From: a virus
Lineage: Duplodnaviria > Caudoviricetes
Direction: 5' to 3' (one strand)
IMG/VR virus record: IMGVR_UViG_3300046615_000208
Location: 32,001 to 96,000 of that record
Length of the DNA: 64,000 bases
In this document: positions 4,817-64,000 of the stretch, in pieces
Layout: each line of letters starts with the position of its first letter
How positions within the stretch are numbered: position 1 is the stretch's first letter
Notes under the pieces: model-generated
What the model saw: only the letters and a program-made list of their open reading frames with translations
What the model was told of the DNA's origin: nothing
Databases searched by the model: none
Position numbers and translations under genes: made by a program

Positions 4817-5201
4817 TTGGGCGGAGGACGCCTCCTGCCAGAATACCACGGTGGACTTCTACTCACAAGACACAACTGAAAAGAAACTGGCAAAGGCGAT
4901 CTGCGCCGAATGCCCTGTTAGACAAATCTGCCTCCAGACAGCCCTTGACAACAAGGAACGCTTCGGCATCTGGGGAGGGGCAGATGAAATTGAACTCCGC
5001 AAGGACATGGCTATCAACGCCAAAGGTGAGTCCCACGTATCAACACAAGGCAAGATTCGTTGCCCGTATTGTGGGCCGCTCTCGACCAAATACCTGAAAG
5101 TTGTTGCCCGACATCGTACACGTACTGATATCGAGTGCACCAACTGTGGTACCCATTGGACAGCACGAAAGCTGATCAACAAGCGGGGCACCAACTGGTA
5201 A
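4806..5201 (+). CDS. whiB: WhiB-family transcription factor with C-terminal Zn ribbon
   Basis: W...A.C...AKAICAECPVRQIC...FGIWGG; extra CPYC...CTNC; likely start ATG 4806 (ORF track begins 4767). Confidence 0.88.
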   Translation: MQSNWAEDASCQNTTVDFYSQDTTEKKLAKAICAECPVRQICLQTALDNKERFGIWGGADEIELRKDMAINAKGESHVSTQGKIRCPYCGPLSTKYLKVVARHRTRTDIECTNCGTHWTARKLINKRGTNW

Positions 5202-13751: not shown

Positions 13752-15215
13752 TTATCCGAATCTGGAGCTTCTGCTGCCAAAACCACCGGCTCTTTGGACC
13801 GGACGCTTGGAGGACACACGACCGGCTCCGCGCCCCTGTGGGAGCCTCAAATCTGCCGGTGAGGTAATCTTGCTCCTGTATGCCCTGAGGCCGGGAGGCG
13901 GGTCAATAAGGGCCGCTATGACCCCCCAAACCATGGCATCCATGCGGTCAGGTGAGGACTTGGTGTTCTCCGGGTCGAAGAACATCATTTGGTCGGTCAA
14001 ATCCGGCATCTCGTCCACGAGCTTGACTCGCTTCTGCTGCATGGCAACGATGACCGGTTCGGCCCTCTTGTGCTTACCATGGTGCGCGTTGACCAAGAAC
14101 ACCTTCAGGTTCGGGTCCTTGGCATTGATGACAGACTGTAGAAGCTGTCGGCCTTGGTTGCCTTCAACCACGATGAACTTGGTTCGATGCTCCTTGGCTG
14201 CGTTTACCACGCGGTCCACCCAGATGTCAACCGATCCCTTGATGGAATAGTCTTCAAGGATGTACGCGGTTCTGTCTCTAGGACGCTGCTCGCCAGTTAC
14301 ACCCACAGCAACAATACCACATTCGTCGGCAGGACGCTCGGCCACAGACGGATCGACTGCAATAAATCGTAGTGGAAGGTGAGGAACTTCCTTGGCACTG
14401 ACCTGTGCATCGTTGATCATGGCTTCGGTGAAGAACAGACCTTCCGCTTCCAGAAGCATTTCCCCGAATAGCTCTTGCTTTGCGAGGTCCGATCCCTCAT
14501 ACTGGGAAGTGATGTCATCGAGGTATGCAGCAGACAGGGATGAGTTGTCATAGGTCGAACCCTTGACAATCTTGATACGCCTTGCTGGGTCCTCAGAGTC
14601 CTTGATGAGGTCTTTCATCAGCTTGGTACGTTTAGGCGTAGTGGTACCGAAGATTTGCGGGTTCTTACCTTCACGAACGGCGAACAGGAGGTTGGCCCAT
14701 GCCGTGGTGCCAGCGTCATCCACTGTAGCCTTCAGAGCCGCTAGCTCGTCTGCCCAACCGTAGTGCGCGGACGGACCACGAAGCTGGTCAGGTTTTTCCG
14801 AGGATGTGCACAGGGCGTAGGAGCCACCCGGCCATTCCAGTCTACGCTTGGATGGGATGTATTCGGGCTTGTTATTTGGTGGGGAACACTCTAGAATAGC
14901 CTTGACCATAACGTCTCGAACGTCAGCGCTGGTTCGGCCAAGCAGTAGGATTTCGATGGGCTTACCGGCAAGGTCAGCCTGTTCCACCTTGGAGCGGACC
15001 CATTCGGCTCCTGCTCTTGATTTACCCCAACCACGCCCAGCGAGTGCAAGGAAGATACGCCAAGAGCCGTCTTCAGGGGGACGCTGTTCCGGCCTGCCCC
15101 AGATCGCCCAGTCATAGGCTAGTGCTTGGGCCTGCTCTTCGGTATAGCCGCCCCAGATTTCTTCTTGCTCTTCGAGAGAAAGCTCTGCGATCTCTTCCGC
15201 TATGGATTTTGACAT
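13752..15215 (-). CDS. terL: Terminase large subunit
   Basis: Walker A LAGRGWGKSR, LRGP...WADE Walker B, TTTP coupling motif, nuclease IAVDPS, VEGNQG, SPDRMDA. Confidence 0.92.
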   Translation of the reverse strand: MSKSIAEEIAELSLEEQEEIWGGYTEEQAQALAYDWAIWGRPEQRPPEDGSWRIFLALAGRGWGKSRAGAEWVRSKVEQADLAGKPIEILLLGRTSADVRDVMVKAILECSPPNNKPEYIPSKRRLEWPGGSYALCTSSEKPDQLRGPSAHYGWADELAALKATVDDAGTTAWANLLFAVREGKNPQIFGTTTPKRTKLMKDLIKDSEDPARRIKIVKGSTYDNSSLSAAYLDDITSQYEGSDLAKQELFGEMLLEAEGLFFTEAMINDAQVSAKEVPHLPLRFIAVDPSVAERPADECGIVAVGVTGEQRPRDRTAYILEDYSIKGSVDIWVDRVVNAAKEHRTKFIVVEGNQGRQLLQSVINAKDPNLKVFLVNAHHGKHKRAEPVIVAMQQKRVKLVDEMPDLTDQMMFFDPENTKSSPDRMDAMVWGVIAALIDPPPGLRAYRSKITSPADLRLPQGRGAGRVSSKRPVQRAGGFGSRSSRFG

Positions 15216-19779: not shown

Positions 19780-19827
19780 AAGGACCCAGTACTTGACAGG
19801 TGCTGGGTCCTTCTGTATGCTGTAGGT
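19780..19827 (+). promoter_or_regulatory. Hairpin with -35 in loop, leaderless promoter
   Basis: AAGGACCCAGTAC-TTGACA-GGTGCTGGGTCCTT, TATGCT, ATG 19828. Confidence 0.75.
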
Positions 19828-33192: not shown

Positions 33193-33507
33193 TTGACAGA
33201 CTGGACGTACGTTCCGGAGTACTGGGACATCGGGACGGTGGAGGAACGTATCCACCGTCTTCGGCGTATTGTCCTGCTGCACTCTGTACTCTACTACAGC
33301 ATGGGTGAGACTCTAGTCCCTGATGCACAGTTTGACAAGTGGGCGTATGAACTTGTGGAGTTACAAAAAACGCATCCTGAAGCTTCGGGACGTGTCTACT
33401 ACCACAGGGACGCGTTCGCTGACTTTACGGGAGAGACAGGCTTTGACCTACCCCTGACAGATGCAGGAGCGATCAGGGCGGCAGAGAGGATGAAGCTTTA
33501 CACATAG
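33193..33507 (+). CDS. Stand-alone NAD-dependent DNA ligase domain Ia-like protein
   Basis: HSVLYYSMGETLVPDAQFDKWAYELVELQKTHPE matches LigA N-terminal H..YY....ISDAEYD....EL..LE..HPE; no adenylation domain. Confidence 0.72.
   Translation: MTDWTYVPEYWDIGTVEERIHRLRRIVLLHSVLYYSMGETLVPDAQFDKWAYELVELQKTHPEASGRVYYHRDAFADFTGETGFDLPLTDAGAIRAAERMKLYT
33360..33375 (+). repeat. Isolated intragenic copy of the GTTACA motif
   Basis: GTTACAAAAAACGCAT, identical to array copies. Confidence 0.65.
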
Positions 33508-46843: not shown

Positions 46844-48721
46844 TCCCATTTGGAAGGAAGAGGATGAAGAGAAACACTATTTCAATGTTGCTGGCAATAC
46901 TGCTGGTTATCCCTATCGCACCAGTACTGTATGCACTTCTGGGTGGCGGATTGGTGGGAAGCGTGGCGTGTCTCCTGCTGGGTGTAGTGACTGCCGCATG
47001 CATGATCAGAGCAGTCAACGGGACGGTAGAGGTCTATAACTGGATCAAGCACCGTAACGTACACATAGAAGAGCCTAAGCCTATGCCTGTACCCCAGCAC
47101 ACTGCCTATGAGATCGACTGGACAAAGATCACCAAGGATGATAGACTGTAGTCATGGAAACAGTAGACAAGAGGACCGAAGAGCAGGAAGGCTTTCTTCA
47201 CCTTCAGGAACCGACCAAGTTCGTTGTGGATGACCGCGTGAGCATGTTCGTACAGGATGGGGAGGTTACCTTCATCGACCACGAGACGGGTGATTCCGTC
47301 ACCATGTCCGAATGGAACTTCTCGGAGGTTGACCTCGCCTATCTTTATGTTAGGCTTGAGGAAAAGAATCCAACGCTCAAGGCCAACCGTCTTGAGCGCG
47401 AGGCGTACGAAGCAGAACAGGAGCAGAACAATGATTAGTGCATCGCGCAAGTATGAACTGGAAATGATCGCGGACAATGAGATTCGGTACCGAGGATTCA
47501 ACTCCGGTGAGGCGTACCTCAAGAAGACCTACGCCATCTACGACCTGACGGACGGAGAGGCGCAGGCTGTCAGCTTCCTCATCCGGAACGCAGTCATTGA
47601 TTTCCCGCCATTCCCCCAGCACTTGGTCTGACAACCGCCCACAAGAAAGGTATTACATTTAATGGCAGAACACCTATTGACAGAAAAAGAAGTAACGGGA
47701 TTCCAGACGGGTGACTACGTAGAGTCCTACTACAACGGCTCACGGTACACAGGTGTGTTGGGTGAGATCAACACCCAATGGATGTTCGCACAGTTGCGTA
47801 TGTCTCCGGGAGTTGATATGATCCTCCCGCTGAGTACGATGGCCGTCATCCCGGAAGAGGAATTTGATGAACTGGACGGATAGCGAGAAGAAGCATGCCG
47901 ATGAGGTAGCATGGGACATGGACCTCATGGAACGGGCACGTAAGCTTGTGGACATGGACGATACGGCTTACGACACGCAGACCGTGTTGGAGACAGTGCA
48001 CGAGACTTATCAGGGTGGCATTGTCCAGTTCCACTTGCAGAACCGGTTCTAATGCGTTACCTTGTAAAGAGCAGGATCGTAATAGTAGACCCGTTCGAGG
48101 ACACGCCGGTTATTGCATCAGCCCACCGGTTCAAGTTCTCAGCCCTAGCACAGTCTAGGATGATGAACAAGCTCAACAAAGAGTTCATTATCCAGTGGTA
48201 CGTACTTGACACAAAGACTATGAAGAAGTATGTTTAAGTAACAAGCCAACGCAAAGGAAAGGGACATCATGTTCGTAGCAGGAGACGTAGTAAAGAACAA
48301 GCTCAACAGCAAGCTCGCCACCGTCACTGACGTACTGAAGGGTGACATGATCCGGGTCCGGTTCGATGGGGACACTGGCACGGTCGAACTCCACGCGTCC
48401 CGGTTCCAAGCACATACGGGTCCGAACTTCGAACAGCCGTTCGAACACGTTGATCCCGAGACCTTCAAGAAGGGTGACTACATTCAGGTCACAGACGGCA
48501 ATGGGGTGACCGTCAAGGGTGCCGCTCTTACCGAACTGAACACGTCCGGGTATGCGACCTTCGACCTGCTGACCGATGACGGACGGTACCTTGACTTCAA
48601 CAACAACTACGTCAACGTCAACGTCTTGTTCCGTGCAGACATCGCACGCGGTCAGATGCCTGCGTACTGAGGTTACAAAAAGCGCATATGGTATCATGGT
48701 ATAAGCCTACTAAGGAGAACC

Positions 48722-49390
48722 ATGGTACGACACCGCGCAAACCTACGAGACCGAGTAAGGACATGGTGGGACAAGAAGCCTGTGTCCCCTGTAGTTCTTC
48801 CGATTGTAGGAGGGGTATTGTCAGTCCTGTTGTTGATAGGGCTGGCATTAACCATTCCTCCGATCATCCACGACATCATCACGCCCAAGGTACCGGAGAA
48901 GACTACCCAACAGACGACGCCCACACCGGAGCAGAGTCTTCCGCCTGTGTTGCAGGTGCCTACTACACAGCCAAGCCCTAAGGCCACACAGGAACCTGTA
49001 CCTGTTCAGGCACCACAACCGGTAGCACCGGGGCCTCAGAACATTCCAGAGCCTGTAGCTCCACAGCCAGTGCCCGTACAGCCGGTGCAACCCTTCCAGC
49101 CGCAACCTGTACCGCAGAAACCACAGCCGGTACCTGTACAACCACCGCAGGTACCACAGGTGCCACACCTACCACCGCTACCGCCTCTGTTGCCAGTACC
49201 ACAGCCACTGCCGTTGCCATTACCATTGCCAAGTCTTCCAGAGGTCCTAGAGCCTGTTGTACCACCTATCCTAGGTCCGGTATTGGAGAAGCCACTGGAC
49301 ACACTAGATAAGGCTGTGGGAGGCACGCTGGACACAGTTGATAAGACAGTGGACGGTGTCACCGGAATCGTCGGAGGATTACTTCCATAG
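48722..49390 (+). CDS. Membrane-anchored Pro/Gln-rich protein
   Basis: Single N-terminal TM, long PQPVP low-complexity stalk, C-terminal LD...GG repeats. Confidence 0.7.
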   Translation: MVRHRANLRDRVRTWWDKKPVSPVVLPIVGGVLSVLLLIGLALTIPPIIHDIITPKVPEKTTQQTTPTPEQSLPPVLQVPTTQPSPKATQEPVPVQAPQPVAPGPQNIPEPVAPQPVPVQPVQPFQPQPVPQKPQPVPVQPPQVPQVPHLPPLPPLLPVPQPLPLPLPLPSLPEVLEPVVPPILGPVLEKPLDTLDKAVGGTLDTVDKTVDGVTGIVGGLLP

Positions 49391-49452
49391 TTACAAGAAA
49401 CGCTTAGAGGCATCAGCTTGCGTAGCTGGTGCCTCTTTGCTATTCTAGAGGC

Positions 49453-49986
49453 ATGAGAACGAAATGCGTACTTTGTAACTGTCGGATCAAAGACCGCCAC
49501 GCGGAACGTAAGACCTGCTCTACCGAATGCCGAAGCTCGTACAAGTGGAAGATGCGGACCATGGCTAAACACCACGACCGAAGCACTTCCGGTCAGCGCC
49601 CCAGCTTCAAGCCCGAAGACTGGACAAGCATCCTGAACAGGCATGGCAGGCGTTGTGCGTACTGCGGTACCAAGAAGGGGAAGATGACAATGGACCATGT
49701 CCTACCGCTCTCACGTGGCGGACGACACTGTGTCTCCAACGTCGTCCCTGCTTGCGGCCAGTGCAACAAGACCAAGGCTGACATGACCCTCATGGAGTGG
49801 AAGCGGAAGAACCTGTACGATCTGCGTCCGTGGACCATGACCACCAACGGGATCAAGATGAAGCGAGCCAAGTCTGGTAAGCTGAACTCCACTCCGCTCT
49901 TCGAGCAGATGCTGAGGGAGATGGCTGACAGGGCGCTTCTGGAGAAGTACCCGCTGACAGTTGACTACACTGACATACTGGTGTAA
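49453..49986 (+). CDS. HNH endonuclease
   Basis: CAYCG...MTMDHVLPLSRGG...SNVVPACGQCNKTK; N-terminal CxxC...CSTEC; leaderless ATG 49453 after TTGCGT/17 bp/TATTCT. Confidence 0.85.
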   Translation: MRTKCVLCNCRIKDRHAERKTCSTECRSSYKWKMRTMAKHHDRSTSGQRPSFKPEDWTSILNRHGRRCAYCGTKKGKMTMDHVLPLSRGGRHCVSNVVPACGQCNKTKADMTLMEWKRKNLYDLRPWTMTTNGIKMKRAKSGKLNSTPLFEQMLREMADRALLEKYPLTVDYTDILV

Positions 49987-51036
49987 GCTGGAGGTAAGAC
50001 TAGAGAAAGGACAACTTATGTTCGGGCGCAACAAGGGTAGGGGTTCCTATCCTGACCCGCCACAGGAGGCACCACGCCAGCGTATGCGGGCCTCATTCGG
50101 TGGCAGTAGGGGAGAGGATGTAATCTCCCGTAGGCTGGACCGACAGGACCCGGTACCGACTCCAGAAGAAAAGTCTGCGGCACTGGAAGCAATCATCAAC
50201 GCTGTACGTACAGCACAGGAACTGGGAGCATCACCGCACGAGGTTGACTCCGCTGTTCGTGGGTTCAACGTAGCAGTTACAAGAAACGCACAGGAAGGAT
50301 ATAACAATGGCGGACTACTACCCGAAGAGCCGTACGGATCACATCGCCAAGGCGATGAAGCTGGACCCCATCAAGGAGGAAATGGCTTCTAAGATTTACG
50401 CCGAACGGTACTCCGACTGCTTCTGCCGAGAGGATCACGACATCAATCCGCCGTGCGGGTCTGTGGTGTGGGCACGAAAAAAGGTGGATGAAATCTTGGC
50501 AATCGCAGAGAAAGCTGGTATGCTGAAGTCATGAAACAGCGAGTAGTAATCCAAGACCTGCACAGTGCCACCATGCCAGTGATCACAGAAATGATCGTGT
50601 CTGACGTCCAAGCCATAACAGGAGACCTGATCCGGTTCGAGCATGATAATGGTAGCGTTACCATCATCAACATCGCTTCGGGCTGGAATGTCTCCATCTC
50701 CGAATATGATGAAGACTGATATGAAGATCATGCGGAGCAACTACGACAAGGCGCACCGTTGTCCCGGATGGGCAGGCCCAGCCCTCAAGGGCATCGAGCC
50801 GTCCATCTGCGCCAGTGGGTCCTTTGCCAAAGAGTTCCACATCCAGCAGTACTGGTATAACAAGGACCCGTACTGGCGCTTCCATAAGTGCCGCACGTGT
50901 GGTACGGTTGTACTCCCCAGCAACTTCCGTAAGTTCGATCCGGTGTGGTGGAAGTTCGCCGCTCAACGGAAGTGGGACAACTGGAAGTACGAACGAGAAC
51001 TTGACAAACGGAACAAGAACAACCTAGAATAGGAAC

Positions 51037-51423
51037 ATGATGAAGAAACTTATTATTGCAGGCGTTATCGCCATTGCCGCTTTCTCGCTGACCGGCTGTC
51101 AGAACCTCGTCCAGAACGAACCGGTTGTGTGTACGGTGGTGGACAAGGACCGATCAACCGAATCCTCGAAGAACGGTTCCAAGTCCGTCTTCCGTATCTA
51201 CACCGAGAACTGTGGTGAGGACAACGAGACGCTGGGTCTTGCCGACAACATCTTGCAGGGCAACTTGCGCTCGTCGGACATGTACGCCAAGATCAAGGTA
51301 GGCGAGACCTACCGGTTCGAGACCGTAGGTATCCGTAACGGAGCCTTCTCATCCTTCCGCGAGATCGTACGGTTCACCAAGGTGTCGGCACCAGTGCCGG
51401 GAATGACGGAGCCTGCCAAGTGA
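51037..51423 (+). CDS. Lipoprotein
   Basis: MKK-hydrophobic-LTGC lipobox. Confidence 0.75.
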   Translation: MMKKLIIAGVIAIAAFSLTGCQNLVQNEPVVCTVVDKDRSTESSKNGSKSVFRIYTENCGEDNETLGLADNILQGNLRSSDMYAKIKVGETYRFETVGIRNGAFSSFREIVRFTKVSAPVPGMTEPAK

Positions 51424-51644
51424 CCAAGCTCCAGAAGATCATCAGCCTTACGGCGGCGTTCGTCCTCATGGTAGGCTTGAGTGCCTGTGCCACTGACGGG
51501 ACAGTATACAACGCGGACAAGACGTACGAGTTTACAATGACCATGAATGATGGTACGGTTGTACCATGCATCAAGCACGAGGACTTCTACGGGTTCGCTT
51601 GCAACTTCGACAAGGCAGTCCGGTCCAACACACCGAAGCCATGA
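51420..51644 (+). CDS. Small lipoprotein
   Basis: Signal peptide with LSAC lipobox. Confidence 0.65.
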   Translation: MTKLQKIISLTAAFVLMVGLSACATDGTVYNADKTYEFTMTMNDGTVVPCIKHEDFYGFACNFDKAVRSNTPKP

Positions 51645-54342
51645 CCGAAGACGGGACTTTCGAAAAGGGAGACCGTGTCAAGATCAACGCTCCGAAGGAG
51701 ACCTGCCACGGACGGACTGGCGTAGTTGACAACTACACCGAGTCTGGTAAGCTCATCTACGTAACCACTCAGACCGGCAGGGTCTGGGTGTATCCGTGGG
51801 AGATAGCCCTACACAAGGAGAGGTAGCAATGTACAAAGAAGGCGACAAGGTCCGCATCATTGCCAAGGATGATTCCGAGTACGGCAGGGTATGTCCTGTT
51901 CACGGTATGTCCGGAGACCACACCGTGTGGGTCAACGTAGGGTTCGGTATGGCTTGGCGCTACCGACCCGATGAAGTAGAAGCAGTAACCGACAACCAAG
52001 AAGGAGAATAGACAATGGCACGATTCAATGGTAAGCAGTACAAGGGTGCGCAGAAGGCACTCAAGGAAATCCGCCGAGAAGAGGCAGAGAAGCGTGACGC
52101 GCAGACCCTGCCCGAGAACCGCCGTCAGGCGCGTCTTACAAAAGACGCATAGCTCGACCTCATGCGGCTACCGTGTTGACAGCAGCACGGTGGCCGTATA
52201 AGCTTTAGCTACAAGATCAAATCAAACCGAAAGGGAAGATCATGAAGTTTGCAGTCGGAGACAAGGTAACCATCAAATCCGCGAGCAAGACGTGGAGCGG
52301 GGTACGTGCCGTGGTTAAGGAGCATGATTCCGAAGAGAAGATGTACCCGTACACGCTGACCCTGATCGATGATACCAGTACCGGATCGTACAAGAGCGGC
52401 GATACCGCCGAGGCATTCCGAGAGGATGAACTGGTGGCGATGGCTGACGTGGTTGCGGCAGACATCGAGAAGGCCAAGCAACTGCTCCAGAAGCACGGTA
52501 TCCCCTTCCGCATCTACTCTCGCGAGGACGTGGACAAGATGCTGAACGTGTACGAACAGGACCCGAACGATCCACTGGATACCCGTACGTTCCGCAGTGA
52601 GATCGCCGCCTTCATCATGGAGGGGCAGGACTGGAAGAATCTCTCTGACAAGGGGCAGGACGACGAGGCCGCTATCTGGGACATGGTAGAGGGTGCACGT
52701 AACGATCACCCGGAATGGTTCGTGAACTGATGGCACGGATGAGTTTCACGGTTGAGGCCGTGGGTGAGAAAGTACGACTAAAGCAGGAGGACGGTACCTA
52801 CACGGACTTCTCCCCTGCTCCTGCCAACCAGATGGCAGGAGGTTTAATTAAGGCGGCGATGGAAGCAAACGGGCAGATACCCCCGAAGGCACTTACGATC
52901 ACGTTTCACTTCGAATAGTTACAAGAAACGCATTTGACACCCCCGACCGAGGAAGGTAGGCTGTAGGTATGAAGACAGACGGAACACCAGAGACCGAGTT
53001 CGAAGAGGCCATGCCGCTGCTCGCCGCTATCGTAGGGCAGAACGCACGTGACCTCCAGTGGACTAACGACCAACTGCTGGCAAGCAAGGAGCGACAGCTT
53101 CGCCAGATGCAACAGGACTACGTGAAGCTGTACGCGTCCATGCAGAAGGTGGCAGAACGTACCGACTCCGCCACTGCCTACAGCGCACTGGACAGGTTCT
53201 GGCACGTGAACGAAGATGCCAAGAAAGAACTTGCCAAACCGGATGATGTGTACTAGACTGGTATTACACCAAGCGAAAGGAAAAGAACATGTGGCAAGAT
53301 AAGCTTAAGTTCAGCGTCGGAGACACCGTCAAGATCGTCCGGGACAACAAGGTCTGGAACGGATCGGTGGCAAAGATCGCGGCAATCACCAACGACGCAC
53401 GGTACCCCTACCTGCTTCACTTCATTTCCTCATCGCGGCCCAACACCGTGGGCGAGAAGTTTGAGTGGGACGAGGAATCGCTCGACCGCCATGACATGAA
53501 CCAGCGTGTCAAGCTGGAGCGGATCATTGCGGAGAAGTTCTCCCATCCGGTAGATGTGTTCTACTCACCGACTACCGGCTGTGCGGTAGTCATGGCACCG
53601 AACGGATACCTGTTCCGTATCCTTGCCGATGGGACCATCGACAAGTGATGTGTAATGAATGCAAGTTAGACAACGGCTGGCACCACGTAGAGTGTAGTCA
53701 AAAGGTATCCATACTCTGGACCACTACACTCACCAAATAAATAGAACCGACCCGAAGGGCCATCCACTTGACAGTGAGTGGCCCTTTGTGTATGCTAGAG
53801 ATATGAAGAAAGCATGGCAGTACCGTAAAGGTGTAGTCCTCATTAAGGGAGACACCGACCCGCTGTTGTCCGCTACGCTGACCAAGGTGGGCTGGAACAA
53901 GTGGCGGCATCACTACTACAGGCAGACCGACCCCAACCTAGACGGCTGGGAGATACGGACTGACAAGCATGTTCAGACACTAATTGACAACAGAGCAGTG
54001 GAGAGGGTAGTGTAGAGATATGAAGAAGCCAAGCAGATACCGTGTCGGATCAGTGTTCATCTACAACGCAGGTCACCCGATGTTCGAAGCCACTTTGTCC
54101 AAGGTAGGACCGGACCACTGGATGAAGGTCAACCACAAGAGCAAGGTCCGCCAGTACTACAGTAACAAAACGGTAGAGGACCTGTTCGCTACCAAGCTGT
54201 TGACTCTGATTCATGACTCTGGTAAGGTGGAGCGGTAGGTTGACAAGGGTGCGGTAAGTGTGTATATTATCTACTTCCAAGGTTTACGGTATAATAGAGG
54301 TAGAAGCACAATCCTCTAGATACTAAAGCACTAGGAACTAAG

Positions 54343-54942
54343 ATGTCAGAAAATCCCTTCCTGTCACCCCCACCGCCCCCTCCGTTCAACCCCGAGGACA
54401 CTACCGTTGTGTCCCGAAGTGCCGGAAAGAACTCTGCCGCAGAGCAGGGCCAGAACATCCCAATGGGATGGAAACCGACAGCCGCAGAACCCGTTGCCGT
54501 AATTCGTTGCACCGGTACCGCCAGCACTACGGGTGAGCAGTGCAAGCGTTGGAGCCTACGTGGCACCAACGTCTGCACTAAGCACGGTGGACAGCTACCG
54601 TCAGTCCGTGAGCACGCCGAGGCGGTGGTGGAATCAGCCCGCATGAGGTTGATGGGAATGGCTGACGATGCCGTAGACGGACTGGAAGACCTCATTGCTA
54701 TCGGCACTGCGCCACAGATTCGGCTTGCCGCTATCAAGGAAGTTCTGGACCGCTCAGGCGTGAAGGGTGGACCCGACCTATCCGTTGAGGTCACGCACTC
54801 CGTATCATACAAAGACGAAATCTTCAACCGCCTCAAGGAAATCAAAGAGCGCAAGGAAGCCATGGAGAAAGAGAAGGCTGCAATCCTTGGAGAAGATATT
54901 GTTGATGCCGAGGTAGTTGACGAAGCCGAAGAAACCGAGTAA
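54343..54942 (+). CDS. Probable terminase small subunit (HGG-type Zn finger)
   Basis: RCTG..STTGEQCKR...GTNVCTKHGG, then helical RLAAIKEVLDRSG, C-terminal DIVDAEVV. Confidence 0.6.
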   Translation: MSENPFLSPPPPPPFNPEDTTVVSRSAGKNSAAEQGQNIPMGWKPTAAEPVAVIRCTGTASTTGEQCKRWSLRGTNVCTKHGGQLPSVREHAEAVVESARMRLMGMADDAVDGLEDLIAIGTAPQIRLAAIKEVLDRSGVKGGPDLSVEVTHSVSYKDEIFNRLKEIKERKEAMEKEKAAILGEDIVDAEVVDEAEETE

Positions 54943-55330
54943 GCTGTAGCCATGGAAGATAATGTAGAGGATGGGACCGAGGGCGGCTACACCGCTTCTG
55001 CGGAAATCCCACCAGAAGAGCTAGAGAAGATGCGGCGAATGCGCCCGCAGTTTTTCACCGACAACATTGACGAGCAATACGACGAGGCCATGGAACTCTT
55101 CGGAGGCAAACCGATCCCCAAGATCGGAGAGCCTGCCGAGTACATCATCACCGACCGAAACATGGTGCCGTCCCTCTCCGAGGCCTACCGTAAGGCCCTC
55201 ATCGAGAAGTACGGGCACATCCCCGAACTGAACGAAATGGTTGCGGTGGACGAGGAACCCGACGACTAGTTACAAGAAACGCACAGCGGCTCCACTTGAC
55301 GGTGGGGCCGTTTGCATGTAAGCTGTAACC

Positions 55331-55957
55331 ATGAACACATTCAAAGAAGGCGACCGTGTCTCCCACCCGAACTACGGAGAGGGTACCGTTACCAGTCCTT
55401 ACCCCGGAACCGGATGGCCTACCGTTCGGTTCGACACCGATGGATTGATCTCGACCGATGCTTCCCTGCTGACACCGGTACGGGCAACTCCTGCCCCACT
55501 TTTCAAGACAGGCGACCGCGTCATTCATCCGCTCCATGGTCCCGCTGGTGTTCTCGGATACGATGCGGCCCGTAAGCTGGTGGAGATCGTGCCGAACACG
55601 TACGGTGGGAACTCCACTCACGTCCATCCGTCCAGCTTGACACTGGCCGAACCGCCCACTAAGTTCAAGGTAGGAGACCGAGTCTCCCACCGCATCCACC
55701 GTGACGGTACCGTGGAAGACATACAGGCCAACGGGTTGCATGTCGTGAACATCGGCGGTAACCGTGTCTACATGGCACTGGAACACCAGATCAGCCATGC
55801 GGTACCGGAACCGACCTACCACATCTGCATCGAAGAGATTACCGGTGCCGCTCATGTTCCCGGTAGCCTTACCGCAAAAGAAGTTGCCAACTACATCGAG
55901 CATGCGCTAGACTGGCGGGTAGCTAAGGAAATCACGATCACCAAGGAAGGAAACTAA
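55331..55957 (+). CDS. Triple Tudor-like (CarD-RID/PcrA-CTD-like) repeat protein
   Basis: FKEGDRVSHPNYGEGTV, FKTGDRVIHPLHGPAGV, FKVGDRVSHRIHRDGTV. Confidence 0.6.
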   Translation: MNTFKEGDRVSHPNYGEGTVTSPYPGTGWPTVRFDTDGLISTDASLLTPVRATPAPLFKTGDRVIHPLHGPAGVLGYDAARKLVEIVPNTYGGNSTHVHPSSLTLAEPPTKFKVGDRVSHRIHRDGTVEDIQANGLHVVNIGGNRVYMALEHQISHAVPEPTYHICIEEITGAAHVPGSLTAKEVANYIEHALDWRVAKEITITKEGN

Positions 55958-57595
55958 TGACCGTCTTCCACAACCCTCCGAAGCCCGGAGACGAGGTCAC
56001 CCTGCTGGCCTACGTCAACACCGCCATCAACGACTTCGAACTCTCTCCCGGTGATACCGCTACCGTGTCCCGTATCGACGGGGACGAAATCTACCTTGAC
56101 GTGGTCTACACCTCAGCACACGCCAACTCACCCTATGCCGGTGAACATGAGGACTGGTTCACGGTCCCGTTTGACGAGGCCGACGAATACTTCGCAGGCA
56201 TCATCCGGATCGAAGAGTAGAGTTACAAAAAACGCATAGAAAGGAACAGCATGGAAAATGAATTTGGAGAGAACCCGTCCTTCTACATCTGGCCCGAGGG
56301 CCACGAGGAAGGCACCGCCTATCCGGAGGACTTCGATGAGCGGCTAGCCCGAGCGCTCGCGACTGAAGGTCTGGACTACGAACGGGTCTAGTTACAAAAA
56401 ACGCATAGCGGTCACGGTTTACATCGTGGCCGCTTTTGTGTATATTAGAGGCATGGAGACATTCAAAGTAGGAGACAGAGTTATCTTCCGTCCGTCACAG
56501 GGCGAGGCGCTAGACGCTACCGTGACAGATGTATTCGGTACCGCCGAAGCGTTCGGCGGATCATACGGAATCAATCTGGACGAACCGTGGGCGGTCATTG
56601 GTGGCGAGACCGAGACAGCCGCTCACGGTATGGAACTTACAAAAAACGCATAGTTGACTTAACCGACCCGAGAGGCTAGACTCAAACCATGGACATCAAG
56701 ACAACCGCAGTATGGATCAATCCCGACGACGAGTTCACCGATGAGATGGGCCACCGCCACAAGGCGCTACGGATCGACCGTGTCGAACGGACGGACGGGT
56801 ACTACGTCTACGTGGAAGGTCAGGGCTACCCTGAATTCTACCTGCGCACGCATGCGGTCACCATCCACGTCCCCGATACCAAGTTCCAACCGGGTGACTG
56901 GGTCACCGCCCGATCCGGTAAGGGTGACGTGTACCAGATCAGCCGTGCCTTCAAGGATCGTTGGGGGAAGACCTACTACGTGTTCGACAACGGATCGGTG
57001 GATATCCGCAAGCGGAACCGCTCCGGTTGGCACGAGGCAGAACGGGCCAACAAAGGTTACAAAAAACTCTTAGACTCGTAAGTTGCATTCCACCGACCGA
57101 GAGGGTAAGCTAGAACCATGACACATTACCTAGACCCTACGGGTGCCGTGTACTGCGGTGCGGTACTGGGACCGGATGACACCCCGGACACCATTGATTC
57201 TCCGCTTCCCGCTCACGAGGTCTGCCGCGAGTGCGACCGTCTAGCCTCCGCTTAGTTACAAAAACCGCTTAGGAAGGAGCAACATGAGTAAGAAACGGGC
57301 ACCGTTCAGTCTGGACCTGAACCTGAAGCTAGCAACCGTCAACCGGGATACGGATACGTCTATGTCCATTGACTTCTGGGACCGCAACGATGAGCAGGTG
57401 GCTGTGATCAATTCCAGCCCCGCCCAGCTTCAGGCGTTCGCTCTTCGCATCCTCCAGCAGGTCCAGTACAACCTAGAGGACCGGGAGAAGTAGTTACAAA
57501 AAACTCTTAGACCGATAGGGTTGACAAATTTAATACGGGTGCCGTAGTGTTGTCCTCATCAACCGAAAGGATAGCACTACCGAAAGGACCCCGAA

Positions 57596-57976
57596 ATGTC
57601 AACTCCACTCCCTCCCCAGTACGCACCGTTCCAGTCCCAGCCTCAGCCTCCCGCACCGAAGAAGCGGTTCAACTGGAAGCTGGCGCTGGCCATCTTCGCC
57701 GCCGTCCTCATTGGCGGGGTCATCGGGTCCGTGTCCAATCCCGCACCGCCCCCGGTGGTGCAGGTACAGGAGAAGGAAGTGGAGGTGGAGAAGGAAGTCA
57801 CCCCGGCCTCCTGTCTTGAGGCTCTGGACCTCAACGAGGAAGCTTTCAGCTACCTGTCCGACTCATTGAGTTCCACCGCAGATCAGAATTACACCGCCGC
57901 ACGCCGATCAACCGACAAGGTGGTGGCACTGGTACCCAAGGTCAACGCCGCAAAGGCCGCTTGCCGAGCCAAGTAG
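57596..57976 (+). CDS. Single-TM membrane protein with paired Cys
   Basis: Pro-rich N-terminus, KKR + TM segment, TPASC...AAC. Confidence 0.65.
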   Translation: MSTPLPPQYAPFQSQPQPPAPKKRFNWKLALAIFAAVLIGGVIGSVSNPAPPPVVQVQEKEVEVEKEVTPASCLEALDLNEEAFSYLSDSLSSTADQNYTAARRSTDKVVALVPKVNAAKAACRAK

Positions 57977-58686
57977 TTACAAGAAACGCTTAGCTCTCCT
58001 GACTTGCACCGACCGCACCGATGCGGTAAGCTGTAATCACAAGCCAAACGGAAAGGTTCACATCATGTCAAACACCACACCGCAGGAACTGAACGAAGCC
58101 TACGAGGCAATCACCGCATCCGACAACCGTGCCAACGTTGGCCGTTCAGACGCGATCTACCACGTCGGGAAGCTCATGACCGGAGATTGGGCACCGGAGT
58201 TCGTGTCCGACCTTCAGGCCGGGATCGCGGACACCGCCGACTACGACTACGATGCACGGTACCACTACGGCTACCTGACCGCGTGGAACACCGTCGCCGG
58301 TCTGCTCAAGGGCGAACCGCTCAAGACCATTGCCAAGAACCACGGCTAGGGGAAACCGATGCTTATTTCCAAGGAACTCGAAGGGGCCACCGTAGAGCGT
58401 ATCTACTGGGCCGTACCGCCCAACACATGGATTCCTACCATCGGTGAGAAGTTCGACAGCTTCCGGGAGGCAGGAGACCACGCGCTCAAGATGGTCGATG
58501 GAGGCCGTGACGCCCTTATCATCAATCGTGTGGTCTTTCGGAAGCCGAACGGTACCACCGTTGACATGGAAGTCGGACGGGAACGACGGTTCGCGTAGTT
58601 ACAAAAACCGCTTAGCTCACAGGACTTGCAGCCGAACCGCTGATGCGGTAAGCTGGTAACACAAGCCAACCAGAAGGAGAAACAAA

Positions 58687-59004
58687 ATGGCAAATCTCAA
58701 GTTCACCCCCCAGTCCCACGAAGAAGCTGCTAAGGTCCTGTCGTTCCGGGACTCGCTGATCATCGGCCACAACACCGAACTCCGCCGTCTAGGGGATGGT
58801 TCCATCGTTGCCACGTACCACGGCAACAGCATCGTACGGTACACCACTGAAGGTGTGTTCGCCACGTACGCAGGATGGGCCACCTCCACCACCACGAACC
58901 GCCTGAACCAGCTTGCACCGGCACGGTTCAACATCAAGAACCGGGAGCCGCAGATCAACGGTAAGACGCTGGAAGACTGGTCCGAATGGGTCAAGGTCAG
59001 CTAG
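58687..59004 (+). CDS. Hypothetical protein (cassette cargo)
   Basis: AAGGAG RBS; TAG stop fused to motif copy 59004. Confidence 0.75.
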   Translation: MANLKFTPQSHEEAAKVLSFRDSLIIGHNTELRRLGDGSIVATYHGNSIVRYTTEGVFATYAGWATSTTTNRLNQLAPARFNIKNREPQINGKTLEDWSEWVKVS

Positions 59005-60953
59005 TTACAAAAAACGCTTACCGTATCCGTTTGCTTCCCGCTTACGGATGCGGTAAGCTTGTTTTATCAGCCCAACCGATCCGAAAGGCACACAATGCAA
59101 ACCGACACACCGTCACCGTTCACCGTAGTAGGTGCCGCCGTATACGATGCGGCTACGGATACATTGGAGGAACCGAACCGATGGGAGTCAGCCGGTAAGC
59201 TTCCCGCCGACCGTGCCCTCCACGTCACGCACGAGTACCGGGACACGCTGTGAACCAGAAACAGCGGGACGAGTTCTGGAAGGATGCGGCAGAGTATACC
59301 GGAGCGATACCGTACTACCGTTTCCACGACGAGTGGTATTACCTTGTCACCGATAGCGGATACACGCCGGTAGACGAGTACACGCTACGGGAGGCGCTGG
59401 ACCTGTTCCACGACGTTACGGACGGCGAGAACTGCGCCGTCTACCTCTACCGTGGCGGTGACCATCTGGCCACCTACAACGGCGGACAGTCCGATCCGGA
59501 GGGTGAAACCACCTACCACGTTACAAAAAGCGCATTGCCGGAATGGCTTGCGGCGCTGGCCGGAAGAGTGTAGGCTGTAGGTATGAGGATAGGAAAAGCC
59601 ATCCTGAAGGAACGGATCGAAACCAAGATCGAAGAGTACCGTGAGTCTAGGGTACAGAACTATGATCCCTATCTGGATGGCATCATGGACGGTCTGGAAT
59701 TGGCTCTCGATATTCTCGAAGAGTCCTGACTACTGAGAGGTAACACCATGTTCAAGAAAAGCAAGATCACCATCTGGACTGACGGACGGTTCGCACGCAC
59801 GGAGTTGGGCGAGTTGGAAAGCGTGGAGGACGTACAGTCCGACATGACGCATGACCGCCAGTCGCATGCCATGTACCCGTCTACTCTCGCCATCGAAGAG
59901 ACCGCTACCACTCTCGTTGTGGTCAAGGAGTCCGGGACGGTTCACGTCTACAACTGGTCCAAGGACTAGTTACAAAACACGCTTAGCATCCATCTTGCAT
60001 CTGGTGCGGATGGGTGCTAAGCTTGTGTTAACAGCCAATCGAAAGGGCATCCAATGATCCGTCCAGTCGCACCGTCCGTTCCCGCAGACTCCACCAAGCC
60101 GGAAGACATCAAGGCATGGGACGACTACTACGCCGCTTGCGAAACCTATGCGGACATGTTGAAGCCTTGCATGGATCGTAGTTGGGATGGCGGCTGGTAG
60201 TTACAAAAAGCGCATCACCGCTAGGTTTGACAGCCTAGCGGTGATGCCGTAAGCTTTAGTTATCAGCCAAACCAACCGGGAGGAAAAGAAATGATGCAGT
60301 TCTCGAAAACCACCATCCAATCCGCAGCCGATGACGTAGCACGATCCGCAGACATTGAACTGGTGTTCAACCAGTCCGACCTTTTCGTGATCGCGGATAG
60401 CTCGGAAGCGATCAACGAGTTTGAGACGCGTCTCGCGGCTCACACGGTAGTCTGGGAGGGTCCGACCGCCTTGGACGCCGCAGGCATGTTGCGGACGCTT
60501 ACGGACTTGCAGGGCGAGCGTGCCGAGTTCCGTCCCCGCCACACCGAGGGGTGGCAAGCCCGATACAACATCGTGGCCCGGTAGTTACAAAAGACGCATA
60601 GCGGATCGCCTTGACAGGTGGTCCGCTGTGCCATAGACTGGAGTCACCAACAAGCCAAGGAGGCCACAATGTCTTTCCCGTTCACAGCAACCGCCGTAAC
60701 AACCGTCATCATGGGTGACAACATACCCGCCCACGACGAGACGCTAGACCTTGCCGAGACCATCGGCCAAAAGCTGGACGAGTTCCGCGAGTACATCACC
60801 AGCGTACGGGACGCGGAACAGGCCCACGATGCGGTAAAGGAACTCCTAGCGGCTCTGCTGGAAGAGGCCAGCAAGTAGTTACAAAACACGCATAGCGGTC
60901 CCAGTTGACACTGGGGCCGCAGGTGTGTATACTGGTAGTAGATGGTAAGCCAT

Positions 60954-61026
60954 TGATATCGGCCCTGTAGCGGGGTCGGGGGGAAGGCCCACCCTAAACG
61001 CGTTTCGGCCCATTATTTTTGGGGTC
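60954..61026 (+). ncRNA. Structured non-coding element, copy A
   Basis: Downstream of TTGACA 60905/TATACT 60928, no plausible ORF; homologous to 63269-63327(-). Confidence 0.5.
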
Positions 61027-61215
61027 TCCCGGTGACCCTGCCCCGCTCCTTTGCGGCTCCGCTTCATACCTTGATTCTTTCACATTTTTGCGCCGGATGC
61101 AAGTCCGGAGCGTTACAAGAAACGCATTGTGATTTGGGTTTGCATGTGGCGTACGTATGCCGTAGAGTATTCATATCGGGTTCATCCGGAACCCCTCAAG
61201 CCTTGGAGGTCTCCC

Positions 61216-61845
61216 GTGGGCGCACCCCGTATCGGTAACGTTCTGAACGTTCCCACTAAGCGTGTTTATGCCGCTAACCCTAACTCGGCCCGTATCGTGG
61301 ACGTATGGCGGCAGGCTACCGTCTCTGAGCTTGTGGAGGGTATGGAATGGTACAAAGACGCGCACGCGCTCGCCGTCCGTCTCTCCCCTGCTGATCCGGC
61401 GCAGGCCGCTGGCGTTATCGCCGCGCTGTCTCCCATGATGGCATGGGGACAGAATGTCAATCTCGCCGTACGTGCCTATGCGGACGGTAAAGCATCCGGT
61501 GCGCTCTTTAGCAACGTTGCTAAAGCCAACCGTATCCTGTCCGGTGAGCGTCCGGAGGACGTACTGGGCGGCGATAAAGTACGCGCATTCTATGGCGTGA
61601 TCGCTAACCCTACGTCGGATGCGGTTGTCGTTGACCGGCACGCGTTTGACATCGCTGTAGGCCGCGTGACTAACAATGAGACGCGGCAGGCACTGGGCCG
61701 TAAGGGTGTCTATGAATCATTCGCTAGCGCCTATGTGCGGGCAGCTAAGACCATTGCACGTGAGACTGGCATGGATGTATCCGCCAGTCAGGTGCAGGCC
61801 GTTACGTGGACGGTATGGCGCAGGCTCAAGGGACTGGCCGAGTAG
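61216..61845 (+). CDS. Phage protein with HhH-GPD/EndoIII-like motif
   Basis: GGAGG RBS + GTG 61216; EWY, IAALSP..W..N, GDKVRAF, VVVDRH, QVQAVTW. Confidence 0.5.
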   Translation: MGAPRIGNVLNVPTKRVYAANPNSARIVDVWRQATVSELVEGMEWYKDAHALAVRLSPADPAQAAGVIAALSPMMAWGQNVNLAVRAYADGKASGALFSNVAKANRILSGERPEDVLGGDKVRAFYGVIANPTSDAVVVDRHAFDIAVGRVTNNETRQALGRKGVYESFASAYVRAAKTIARETGMDVSASQVQAVTWTVWRRLKGLAE

Positions 61846-61940
61846 TTACAAGAAACGCATAGGCGGCAGGACTAGACACCCTGCCGCTTATGCCATAGAC
61901 TTTATTCATCGGAACAATCCGAATCACTTAGGAGGCCACC

Positions 61941-62300
61941 ATGGCAAGCATCGCAGAAACTCTTCTCACTCGCACGGCACGCGACGGCGGCGTGACTGTC
62001 TCACTCGTTAGCGGCGACGTTGCCGCCCACACATCGGGCTTCTACGTCGGCGGACGCGTCACTGAGACGCTGGTGACGGACCCCTCAGACATCGGTGACT
62101 ACCTGTCTGCCGTCTCCACCATTACGCGGCGTGCTGGCGGCGTAGGCTACATCGGCGCATGGAAGAACCACGAAACGGGTATGGTGCACGTGGATGCATC
62201 GGATCACGTGGAAGACTTCGGTTCCGCCGTACGGATCGCGCAGGAGCGCGGCGAACTGGCGATTTGGGAGATCGCTGGCGGGACCGAATTCCGGCTCTAG
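61941..62300 (+). CDS. Hypothetical protein (cassette cargo)
   Basis: AGGAGG RBS; TAG stop fused to motif copy 62300. Confidence 0.75.
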   Translation: MASIAETLLTRTARDGGVTVSLVSGDVAAHTSGFYVGGRVTETLVTDPSDIGDYLSAVSTITRRAGGVGYIGAWKNHETGMVHVDASDHVEDFGSAVRIAQERGELAIWEIAGGTEFRL

Positions 62301-63224
62301 TTACAAGAAACGCATAGCGGGTTGGCTTGCGGACGGTAAGCCAACCTGCTAATCTTGAACCATAAGCAAGGCCCAACAAACCAAAAGGGAGTTACAAAAT
62401 GCGCGTTGTAAAAGAAACTGCACTCATTGGGGAAGCCATGTTTTTTCTGGCCGCTCGCTCCAAGGCTGTCGGCGGCGTTACGGCAGGCGTGGAGTCTGCC
62501 AGTAACGACAAGGTACCGGCCAAATTCCACGGCGAGTACGTGGTGACGGGCAACGGCGGACGTTGGGAGTGTACCAACCTTGTTCGGGCCGTGGTGACGC
62601 TTAGGAGCGTCCGGAATGCCGAGAACCTGTGGCAGATCAAGGACGGCAAGCGGACGCGTCTGGCGTACAGCTAGCGGTTACAAAAAACGCATACGGGCAG
62701 GACTAGACACCCTGCCCGTATGCGGGTAAGCTTGGACCATACCAACCGAAAGGAACACAATGAAAGACTTTTCTGAGCTTATGGTTGCAGTTCTTGCCAT
62801 ATTCCCCGAAGCTACGGTGGAACAGGATCGATACGGGCAGATAGTGATCCACACTAACCTTACCGAAGACGGTAAGGGTGGTTTCGCACCGTTTCAGGTA
62901 CTGGAAGAGTACGGCGACTAACTACAAAAAACGCTTAGGGATAGGACTTGCATCTAGCGGTCCCATCCCCTAGAATTGAAGTATCAGCCAAACAACGGGA
63001 GAGGAACCCAAAATGGATTGGATCACTGTAACACCGGCTTACGGACGCGACTACAAGAACCAGAAGGACGCGGCGGCAGACTGGAACGCCAATCTCGATT
63101 TCCGCGAAACATCCACCGGCCAGTACACAAACAAGGCCGACTGCCAGCGGATGGGAAAGAAGGTCATCATCCGCTACGGGAAGCTCATGAAGACCATGCA
63201 GGCCCCAATGAAGTAGCCGACTTA

Positions 63225-63260
63225 CAAAAGACGCTTAGCCGAAAGGCTAAGCGTCTTTTG
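63225..63260. terminator. Bidirectional terminator built from two head-to-head motif copies
   Basis: CAAAAGACGCTTAGCC-GAAA-GGCTAAGCGTCTTTTG, perfect 16-bp stem. Confidence 0.8.
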
Positions 63261-63268
63261 CGTGTTGC

Positions 63269-63327
63269 GGCCTAAAAAATAAGGCCAGACTCGGCCTTCC
63301 CCGCCACCCGTCTCAGGGCGGCTATCA
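63269..63327 (-). ncRNA. Structured non-coding element (or 18-aa mini-ORF), copy B
   Basis: Downstream of minus-strand TTGCAT (63379-63374)/17 bp/TAAGCT (63356-63351); homologous to 60954-61026. Confidence 0.5.
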
Positions 63328-63624
63328 TGTGGGCCTTCCGGCTTAATACAAGCTTAGCACCTATCGGATGCGGATGCAAGCCTACAAAAAACGCATTGGG
63401 TGTTGCGGATGCGCTCGCATGCGTGTACGCTTAGGGTATGGCAACCCAACTAGACATGGTACAGCGTATGTTCGCTAATGGCGGCGTGACCTGTCCCATC
63501 AGTGGCGACAGGATCGCTACGGCTAAGTCTGACCCTCCCAAGCTGTCAGAGATAGTTGACTGGGAAGCGGATTCATACTACCGTGGAGTAGGGCAACCCA
63601 AAGAGACAGTTAGGAGCTAGGACA

Positions 63625-63909
63625 ATGGCAAACTACACGCGGACCCAGTTTACTCGACTCGGAGACTTCGGAGTCTCGGAGGAATGGCGTACGGAGACAC
63701 AGCCCAGCGCCACGCTGGCGTACGTGGATCACTACAACGGCGCTATCAGTACCGCGCAGGTTTTCGACCCCGCTACGGGTCACACGCGGACGTACCCGTT
63801 CCGTTCCAAGGATCGGGCAATGGCCATTGTGGAGCGTCACCTAGAACGCAATGGTTACAAAAAATGCGTAGAGTTCCGCGACTTGACAGGCAATGTCTCG
63901 GAGTACTAA
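63625..63909 (+). CDS. Hypothetical protein whose C-terminus reads through motif and next promoter
   Basis: GYKKCVEFRDLTGNVSEY* spans motif 63854 and TTGACA 63883. Confidence 0.7.
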   Translation: MANYTRTQFTRLGDFGVSEEWRTETQPSATLAYVDHYNGAISTAQVFDPATGHTRTYPFRSKDRAMAIVERHLERNGYKKCVEFRDLTGNVSEY

Positions 63910-64000
63910 GCTCTAAGTGACAACCACCTAGGAGGCGGACCATGGCACGCAAACCACGCGCTAGCGAAGTAGCTACAAGAAACGCATTCTTGGATTATTT

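Follow-up and report, generated by a model that had tools for sequence, protein, structure and literature searches.

Joints between small genes of a large Arthrobacter-type phage combine a conserved upstream box, a hairpin and a host-type promoter

The distal part of a 64,000-nucleotide stretch of phage DNA (the window), comprising bases 32001-96000 of the 171,752-bp viral record IMGVR_UViG_3300046615_000208 (G000; estimated to be 99% complete), contains small genes separated by copies of an 18-nt box, most of which are followed by a promoter of the host type. When the pattern GTTACAAAAAACGC[A/T]TAG was sought, with up to two mismatches to its 14-mer being allowed, 61 copies were found in G000, nearly all within genome positions 80.6-107.5 kb. 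The strand on which they lie changes from + to - at 102 kb, the copies being co-oriented with the small genes throughout. The reversed pattern, sought over G000 as a control, gave 0 matches. On balance, the box is probably the upstream part of a composite terminator-promoter joint separating small early genes, similar to the cassettes known as promoter-early stem-loops (PeSLs).

The helicase of G000 is, according to a protein search, 52% identical to that of the Arthrobacter globiformis phages Racecar, Mimi, Talia1610 and Atuin (~194 kb); a near-identity search of the array region against cultured phages gave no match. Five genomes were pooled for the measurements given below, namely, G000, G001 (a 95-kb viral contig), Racecar, G003 (168.6 kb) and G004 (35.5 kb), the last two having come from a scan of viral contigs with a broad box-plus-TTGAC pattern that mostly yielded chance matches. 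In the 194,177-bp genome of Racecar, matches to the box pattern repeat at a constant offset of 173,709 bp, and the array occupies the whole of a terminal direct repeat of ~20.5 kb (positions 1-20468 and 173710-194177). Such placement of the array in a terminal repeat resembles the host-takeover module of Bacillus phage SPO1.

Distance between the box and the promoter

Pairs of -35 and -10 hexamers were called with a simple promoter scorer, with which all of the copies listed in the original prediction were re-measured. The distance from box base 1 to the first base of the -35 hexamer was reproduced in all 22 copies, 19 lying at 26-29 bp and the others at 16, 18 and 22 bp. A TAnnnT -10 hexamer was likewise found 17-18 bp after each -35 hexamer, the latter reading TTGnnn or TAGACA, with TTTACA at 56391 and TTTGCA at 61112. 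That list had omitted the promoter of the unit at 52135-52211 (41 bp; TTGACA/TAAGCT), as well as seven promoter-less copies on the + strand of the window. In all, of the 30 boxes on this strand of the window, 23 have a promoter, as have 47 of the 61 boxes in G000, 39 of these 47 being at 26-29 bp. When the five genomes were considered together (153 box-promoter pairs), 72% of the distances were 27-28 bp and 86% were 26-29 bp. By comparison, a promoter was encountered at offsets of 25-30 from a random genome position in 1.9% of trials. The off-peak units of the window, all of whose units described here are on the + strand, include two without a hairpin, in one of which (52918-52969) the box abuts TTGACA at 16 bp and is followed by the -10 hexamer TAGGCT, while the other (56636-56689) presents TTGACT/TAGACT at 18 bp, together with the unit at 63381-63438 (22 bp; TTGCGG/TACGCT).

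An A is found 12 nt after the first -10 base in 121 of the 153 units, and in 26 units an ATG or GTG falls exactly at the predicted start, meaning that the gene is leaderless, as at window positions 52969, 55331, 56689, 57118, 59583 and 63438. Counted from this A, box base 1 is at -62/-63 and nucleotides 6-11 of the box are at about -57 to -52, in agreement with the position of the A-run given earlier, while the whole box spans -63 to -46. Both position and fixed distance are conserved in the five diverged phage genomes. The spacing between box and promoter is real and selected.

The same spacing had been read as helical phasing, on the view that the box is an activator site or a docking site for the C-terminal domain of the RNA polymerase alpha subunit (alpha-CTD) that, taken strictly, works at 27-28 bp or whole turns away and fails at half turns. 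Of the 153 pairs, 22 lie outside 26-29 bp (16, 18, 18, 21, 22, 24, 24, 25, 30, 30, 30, 31, 32, 35, 36, 37, 37, 38, 39, 41, 41 and 50 bp). Some of these form two minor groups, roughly a helical turn below (16, 18 and 18 bp) and above (36, 37, 37, 38 and 39 bp) the peak, as phased docking would predict. Nonetheless, a V-test for a 10.5-bp period centred on 27.5 was not significant, either for all 22 off-peak copies (p = 0.20) or for the 15 left once the shoulder of the main peak was removed (p = 0.10). Equally good promoters exist at 21, 22, 32, 35 and 41 bp, of which 21, 22, 32 and 41 bp are half-turn offsets. In the G000 and G001 copies at 37-38 bp, a compact hairpin lying between the box and the -35 hexamer accounts for the longer distance, while the distance varies by 1-2 bp between orthologous joints (27 versus 25; 27 versus 28). 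The "one turn less" class of the original prediction had itself rested on two copies (16 and 18 bp). What is observed is a rule of fixed distance; a rule of helical phase is not demonstrated.

Other aspects of docking fared differently. UP elements have a consensus of A/T runs, with the proximal subsite lying at -46 to -38. The AT-rich box nucleotides 6-11 lie within the region where such an element is expected (-38 to -59), at the position of the distal subsite, and the fixed distance, its retention in copies devoid of a hairpin and the weaker -35 hexamers of box-linked promoters (TTGACA in 12.5%, versus 38% of box-less promoters) also speak for docking. Moreover, early promoters of T4, of the "UP/-35/TGn/-10" type, similarly combine UP elements with extra conserved positions in very good host-type promoters, and their activity is raised by an ADP-ribosyltransferase, Alt, which is delivered by injection from the head of the phage and modifies the RNA polymerase alpha subunit (PMC2988021). 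On the other hand, the box contains no T-run, and the stretch at about -46 to -36, where a proximal subsite would be sought, is instead a stem arm of 67% G+C. The A6 run is intact in 46% of the box-linked copies in G000 and interrupted in the remaining 54%, and three other lineages present only A4. The positions best conserved are TTACAA, A9 and CGC, rather than the A-run. Together with the promoters that have no box and the boxes that have no promoter (see below), these observations make phased docking of an activator or the alpha-CTD an unlikely account. No documentation of UP elements in Arthrobacter was found.

It had also been proposed that the conserved GTTAC and CGC flanks favour a sequence-specific protein. 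The frequent breaks in the A-run and the stronger conservation of TTACAA, A9 and CGC indeed argue for base-specific reading, by a protein or otherwise, and against plain docking to an A-tract. The CGC, however, belongs to a lineage-specific stem foot. Only box nucleotides 1-9, GTTACAAAA, are common to all five genomes and constitute the sole universal part, while nucleotides 10-18 differ by lineage, reading AACGCATAG in G000, CTTGAATAG in Racecar, CTTCACTAG in G003 and GTTTCTAGG in G004.

A hairpin enclosing the -35 hexamer

The spacers between box and -35 hexamer had been described as unrelated in sequence. This is so when copies are compared with one another, yet each spacer is complementary to the -35/-10 spacer of its own promoter, with which it forms a hairpin. 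Copy by copy, the 9-10 nt that follow the box pair with the first part of the -35/-10 spacer. An ungapped helix enclosing the -35 hexamer exceeded the 95th percentile of chimeric controls in 59% of the copies, where 5% would be expected, and the pairing was lost in chimeras joining the 5' arm of one copy to the 3' arm of another. With RNAfold, 79% of the main-class copies gave z < -2 (mean energy, -22.6 kcal/mol). The 91 hairpins identified have a median stem of 16 bp, a median loop of 5 nt and a median energy of -27 kcal/mol. The 5' foot of the hairpin lies inside box nucleotides 9-18 in 89 of the 91 (98%), and the 3' foot lies within -10 to +4 of the start of the -10 hexamer.

In the variable part of the stem, 796 Watson-Crick, 109 G.T and 2 A.C pairs were counted, the latter two having been scored equally (p = 5e-30). 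This excess of G.T over A.C pairs indicates that the fold is selected as sense-strand RNA, reading in from the upstream gene. Compensatory changes were observed between orthologous joints of G000 and G001, as was one replacement of a whole hairpin in which the spacing was kept. At the foot, the lineage-specific half of the box can itself take part in the pairing. In G000, CGCATAG pairs with CTATGCG just before the -10 hexamer, whereas in Racecar, TTGAATAG pairs with CTATTTGA, two wobble pairs included. Box nucleotides 12-18 pair at six or more of seven positions with the bases before the -10 hexamer in about a third of the G000 and G001 copies and in 5 of 25 Racecar copies.

Within the window, the hairpin encloses TTGCGT in the unit at 49390-49453 (28 bp; -10 TATTCT), which leads into a leaderless ATG at 49453, and TTGACG in that at 55269-55331 (27 bp; TAAGCT; leaderless ATG at 55331), where the distance is 25 bp in the G001 orthologue. 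In the unit at 56391-56453 (27 bp), AGCGGTCACGG pairs with TCGTGGCCGCT around TTTACA, after which TTTTGTG follows; the -10 hexamer is TATATT. The unit at 60200-60262 (27 bp) offers a 14-bp hairpin, GCATCACCGCTAGG/CCTAGCGGTGATGC, around TTGACA (-10 TAAGCT), and that at 62677-62739 (27 bp) a 16-bp hairpin, CGCATACGGGCAGG.../...CCTGCCCGTATGCG, which extends from box nucleotide 12 to 2 nt before the -10 hexamer TAAGCT. At 61845-61908 (28 bp; TAGACA/TAGACT), the arms are GGCGGCAGG and CCTGCCGC. At 59969-60030 (26 bp; TTGCAT/TAAGCT), the 3' arm enters the -10 hexamer, where CTAAGC pairs with GCTTAG of the box. Hairpins are likewise present in the 27-bp units at 59004-59066 (TTGCTT/TAAGCT), 60584-60646 (TTGACA/TAGACT), 60878-60940 (TTGACA/TATACT), 62300-62362 (TTGCGG/TAATCT) and 62921-62983 (TTGCAT/TAGAAT), the last differing from its G001 counterpart by compensatory changes. 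A further unit, at 58598-58661, presents TTGCAG/TAAGCT at 28 bp. The promoter at 60878 is followed by ~170 nt (60940-61110), up to the 61112 box, that contain no plausible ORF and match no Rfam family; this region may encode a small non-coding RNA.

In 23 of 105 copies no significant hairpin was detected, and still the promoter lies at 26-30 bp. In the window, such units are found at 57056-57118 (27 bp; TTGCAT/TAAGCT; leaderless ATG at 57118), 57493-57557 (28 bp; TTGACA, an 18-bp spacer and TAGTGT), 57976-58039 (28 bp; TTGCAC/TAAGCT), 59520-59583 (28 bp; TTGCGG/TAGGCT; leaderless ATG at 59583), 61112-61175 (27 bp; TTTGCA/TAGAGT; preceding a DUF7178 gene) and 63854-63919 (29 bp; TTGACA, an 18-bp spacer and TAAGCT). 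Also in this group are the promoters that open the leftward array, at genome positions 107269, 107366 and 107441, whose boxes are not preceded by the stop-codon TA. Outside the window, genome positions 107269-107469 hold four tandem boxes, three with their own promoter (-10 GATAAT, GACAAT or GAGGAT), again without the stop-codon TA or a significant hairpin.

Several explanations of the hairpin were considered and rejected. An antisense terminator, with the hairpin being followed by TTTTTTGTAAC on the opposite strand (two such matches), is ruled out as a selected function, given that A.C mismatches would then be carried by the opposite strand. The 109:2 ratio of G.T to A.C pairs also rules out a DNA cruciform or a protein-bound inverted repeat, and the stems differ in every copy.

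Could the box itself act in RNA? In this scenario, a single-stranded UUACAAAA located 5' of the hairpin would serve as a nuclease or RNA-binding site through which the 3' ends of early messages, their stability or their read-through are determined. Selection of the hairpin on the sense strand is in line with such a role, as is the position of the box, always directly 5' of the hairpin, even in plain terminators such as that at 63221, and so too are boxes found inside operons directly before ribosome sites (56222 and 57255). This scenario, however, leaves unexplained both the fixed distance to the -35 hexamer in hairpin-less units and the boxes ahead of the promoters that open the array, into which hardly any transcription, if any, should enter from upstream. 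Furthermore, an Rfam search of window positions 48000-64000 revealed no matching family. An RNA-level role for the box thus appears quite improbable.

Separability of the parts and boundaries of homology

The box is often entered from a stop codon. In 28 of the 61 G000 copies, the codon is TAG, with its G being box base 1, and TA likewise precedes the box G in G001 (28 of 54 copies) and G003 (23 of 35). Over the 80 copies with a linked promoter in G000 and G001, the two bases before the box are T in 61% and A in 69%. A programmed -1 frameshift, invoking A_AAA_AAC, a 6-nt spacer and the hairpin, was also considered and rejected, since the overlapping stop codon (28 of 61 copies) sits 5' of the slippery run, which is out of frame with it.

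Box, hairpin and promoter do not always occur together. The + strand boxes in the window lacking a promoter are those at 48672, 50276, 56222, 57255, 62391, 63221 and 63972. The first box of the array in the window (48672-48724) has no -35 hexamer and is followed by a -10-like TATAAG and then by the ATG at 48722. Three boxes directly precede a ribosome site, namely, 50276-50309 (ATG at 50307), 56222-56253 (ATG at 56251) and 57255-57286 (ATG at 57284), the latter two without a hairpin. Elsewhere, the box is accompanied by a terminator only, as at genome positions 102336 and 103408 and at window positions 63221-63262, where it provides the 5' arm of a canonical terminator, CAAAAGACGCTTAGCC-GAAA-GGCTAAGCGTCTTTTG. 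The box keeps to the foot of the hairpin where the latter has moved off the -35 hexamer (genome positions 101603 and 101919; window position 63221). At the edge of the window (63972-63989), the box reads GCTACAAGAAACGC, and no promoter was found downstream in the genome. In the ~200-nt non-coding gap at 63221-63440, the box-built terminator is followed by a second hairpin (63281-63298), with a T-run on the - strand, and then by the 63381 box and its promoter.

Conversely, promoters with the -35 hexamer in a hairpin loop occur without a box at window positions 19793, 29599 and 53768 (genome positions 51793, 61599 and 85768), the hairpins being A-rich at the 5' foot and T-rich at the 3' foot. 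Because these lie outside or at the edge of the array, the design in which a hairpin is built around a promoter is genome-wide and independent of the box. A perfect copy of the 14-mer at 33360-33377 lies inside the ORF at 33193-33507, where it encodes ELQKTHPE, and is also present in G001. This copy is probably coding sequence that matches by chance, rather than a joint.

Boxes placed directly before ribosome sites would be accounted for were the 18-nt box a promoter of a phage-encoded RNA polymerase or sigma factor, with transcripts beginning at the 3' end of the box and carrying the hairpin at their 5' end. Indeed, an asymmetric, co-oriented box of 18 nt that ends in ATAG resembles promoters of the T7 type. 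Yet, searches for a T7-type RNA polymerase family gave no match, although the positive control of that search gave no match either. No match to sigma region 2 was obtained, no DxDGD motif was detected in any ORF of at least 250 amino acids, and no polymerase of that kind was seen among the large ORFs scanned. Moreover, host-type promoters occur throughout the genome. It is therefore very improbable that the box is a phage-polymerase promoter.

The joints coincide with boundaries of homology. Syntenic blocks of G000 and G001 are 74-92% identical. Of the 48 ends of homology between these genomes, 25% fall within -5 to +20 of a box, as compared to 5% at random, a five-fold enrichment, and the starts of homology blocks cluster at -3 to +2 of the box. 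When ten orthologous joints were compared, identity was 51% over the upstream 20 nt, as against 94-97% for the box, -35 hexamer, spacer and -10 hexamer. Neighbouring boxes, furthermore, are more alike than are random pairs, both in G000 (0 of 5,000 shuffles reached the observed value) and in G001 (p = 0.004).

These breakpoints, together with the likeness of neighbouring boxes, the boxes at promoter-less joints, the hairpin foot that lies in the box and the boxes that keep to this foot when the hairpin leaves the -35 hexamer, could also be taken to mean that the box has no transcriptional role. Rather, it would be a homology patch and stem foot of mobile cassettes, the fixed distance being a by-product of hairpin geometry and common descent. 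At the same time, GTTACAAAA is invariant across lineages with helicases ~52% identical, even though the adjoining stems have fully diverged, which argues for sequence-specific selection beyond homology. The hairpin-less promoters at the start of the array still keep to 27-28 bp, and no recombinase of three common families was found in the genome. A box lacking any part in transcription is accordingly deemed rather unlikely.

The composite joint and its relation to known systems

With spacing, hairpin, strand-specific wobble bias, separability of the modules and homology breakpoints all observed directly, we infer how the joint may function as a terminator and promoter. A unit comprises, in order, the upstream stop codon, the universal half-box GTTACAAAA, the lineage half-box (here AACGCWTAG) that serves as the 5' foot of the hairpin, and the ~16-bp hairpin itself, with the -35 hexamer in its loop and the 17-bp promoter spacer as its 3' arm. 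The -10 hexamer TAnnCT follows, with transcription predicted to start at the A 12 nt after the first -10 base. In RNA entering from the upstream gene, the hairpin would fold and most likely stop or attenuate that transcript, whereas the host sigma-A promoter wrapped around the hairpin would start transcription anew for the gene that follows. Hairpin geometry by itself yields 27-28 bp, this being the distance obtained when the three parts are fitted together with no slack, the hairpin at full length, and the sum of 11-12 unpaired box bases and a 5' arm that mirrors the 17-bp spacer. As hairpin-less units also keep the distance, the universal half-box probably has a second reading, at the level of DNA and jointly with the promoter, as an upstream element for the alpha-CTD or for a factor marking the early class. 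Over evolutionary time, the box would be a point of cassette exchange between phages.

Such a joint has precedents in PeSLs of T4-type phages, in which an AT-rich stretch contains the stop codon of the upstream gene and a terminating stem-loop overlaps a sigma-70 promoter; indels between relatives occur at these units. In the examples compared here (RB49/phi1, T4/PST and KVP40/nt-1), experiments demonstrated the activity of promoters and terminators, as well as mini-circles (Arbiol et al., 2010, PMC2839356; Comeau et al., 2014, PMC4122927). The joints of G000 likewise present a stop codon in an AT-rich stretch upstream of the -35 hexamer, a promoter of the host sigma-70 type and a stem-loop with G.T pairs that overlaps this promoter. 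They also lie between small genes of unknown function, and gain, loss or replacement between close relatives falls at these units. They differ from PeSLs in that the host is actinobacterial and the DNA is 55% G+C. Moreover, the AT-rich part is a discrete and nearly invariant box at 27-28 bp, whereas PeSL stem-loops take five positions relative to the promoter. Finally, the hairpin here is long (~16 bp) and centred on the -35 hexamer, and many of the genes are leaderless.

Two other systems also bear a likeness to the array. In the temperate mycobacteriophages of cluster A, stoperators serve as repressor sites and are not known to be tied to the -35 hexamer at a fixed distance. Like the box, they are asymmetric sites (13-14 bp) that recur many times in the orientation of transcription, within narrow gaps between genes and close to stop codons; unlike them, the box lies at a fixed distance to the -35 hexamer, and neither a repressor nor an integrase was found in G000. 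Integron attC arrays share with the joints the co-oriented single-gene cassettes, the intervening hairpin elements of variable sequence and the strand-specific folding. However, each unit here has its own promoter, the wobble bias fits coding-strand RNA, and the box does not fit the GTTRRRY core of attC. An integron-like site-specific system was rejected, as no match to a PF00589 tyrosine integrase was found in the genome, with the controls being positive.

Several observations weigh against the joint as proposed. Only 22 of the 91 hairpins (24%) have five or more T among the 9 nt that follow the stem, the clear cases being those at 56391 and 63221, such that termination is not assured. Promoters of the same type need no box, being box-less in 50 of 82 candidates called by rule in G000, where 7 promoters would be expected in a shuffled genome, and in 40 of 76 cases called with a position weight matrix, while, as noted, seven + strand boxes in the window are without a promoter. 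At 9-18 bp, the box is short for homologous recombination, and genome searches for RecA, RecT or an integrase gave no match. The spacing of hairpin-less units could have been inherited from hairpin-bearing ancestors, rather than having been selected. Lastly, genome searches for phage RNA polymerase, sigma factor, integrase, RecA and RecT identified no reader of the box.

A role for GTTACAAAA as an upstream element at the level of DNA is nonetheless plausible, and is the most plausible of its extra functions, if unproven, given that hairpin-less units keep the distance and that box-linked -35 hexamers are weaker. The only DNA-binding candidates seen were one weak helix-turn-helix-like match and a WhiB-like protein (window positions 4767-5201; Pfam Whib, E = 2e-19), neither of which is linked to the box. 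The latter has an extra C-terminal CxxC...CxxC tail resembling a zinc ribbon, and adjoins the helicase, as in Racecar. On the opposite strand, a T4-type large terminase gene (13752-15215, - strand) is found among replication genes (PhoH/PIN, AAA ATPase, helicase and primase-like).

More speculatively, GTTACAAAA, at -63 to -54, could be the docking site of a dedicated reader that acts at a set distance over an RNA-terminator hairpin and so defines an immediate-early promoter class across Arthrobacter-type phages of 170-195 kb, a possibility put forward only tentatively. Were this the case, the reader could be a factor that enters the cell along with the DNA, a phage protein made very early or an alpha-CTD that has undergone modification, representing an actinobacterial counterpart of the relationship between T4 Alt and early promoters.

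While the finding does not by itself reveal a new mechanism, it provides a precise anatomy, based on more than 150 examples, of early transcription units in the little-studied large phages of actinobacteria. It also isolates a 9-nt element that is directly testable in a cultured relative, Racecar, on Arthrobacter globiformis, with the hairpin-less units being naturally occurring constructs in which the use of fixed-distance upstream elements by actinobacterial RNA polymerase can be examined. If the composite joint is the correct reading, then the PeSL idea, namely, that regulatory joints double as points of gene shuffling, would extend from T4-type phages of Gram-negative hosts to Arthrobacter-type phages.

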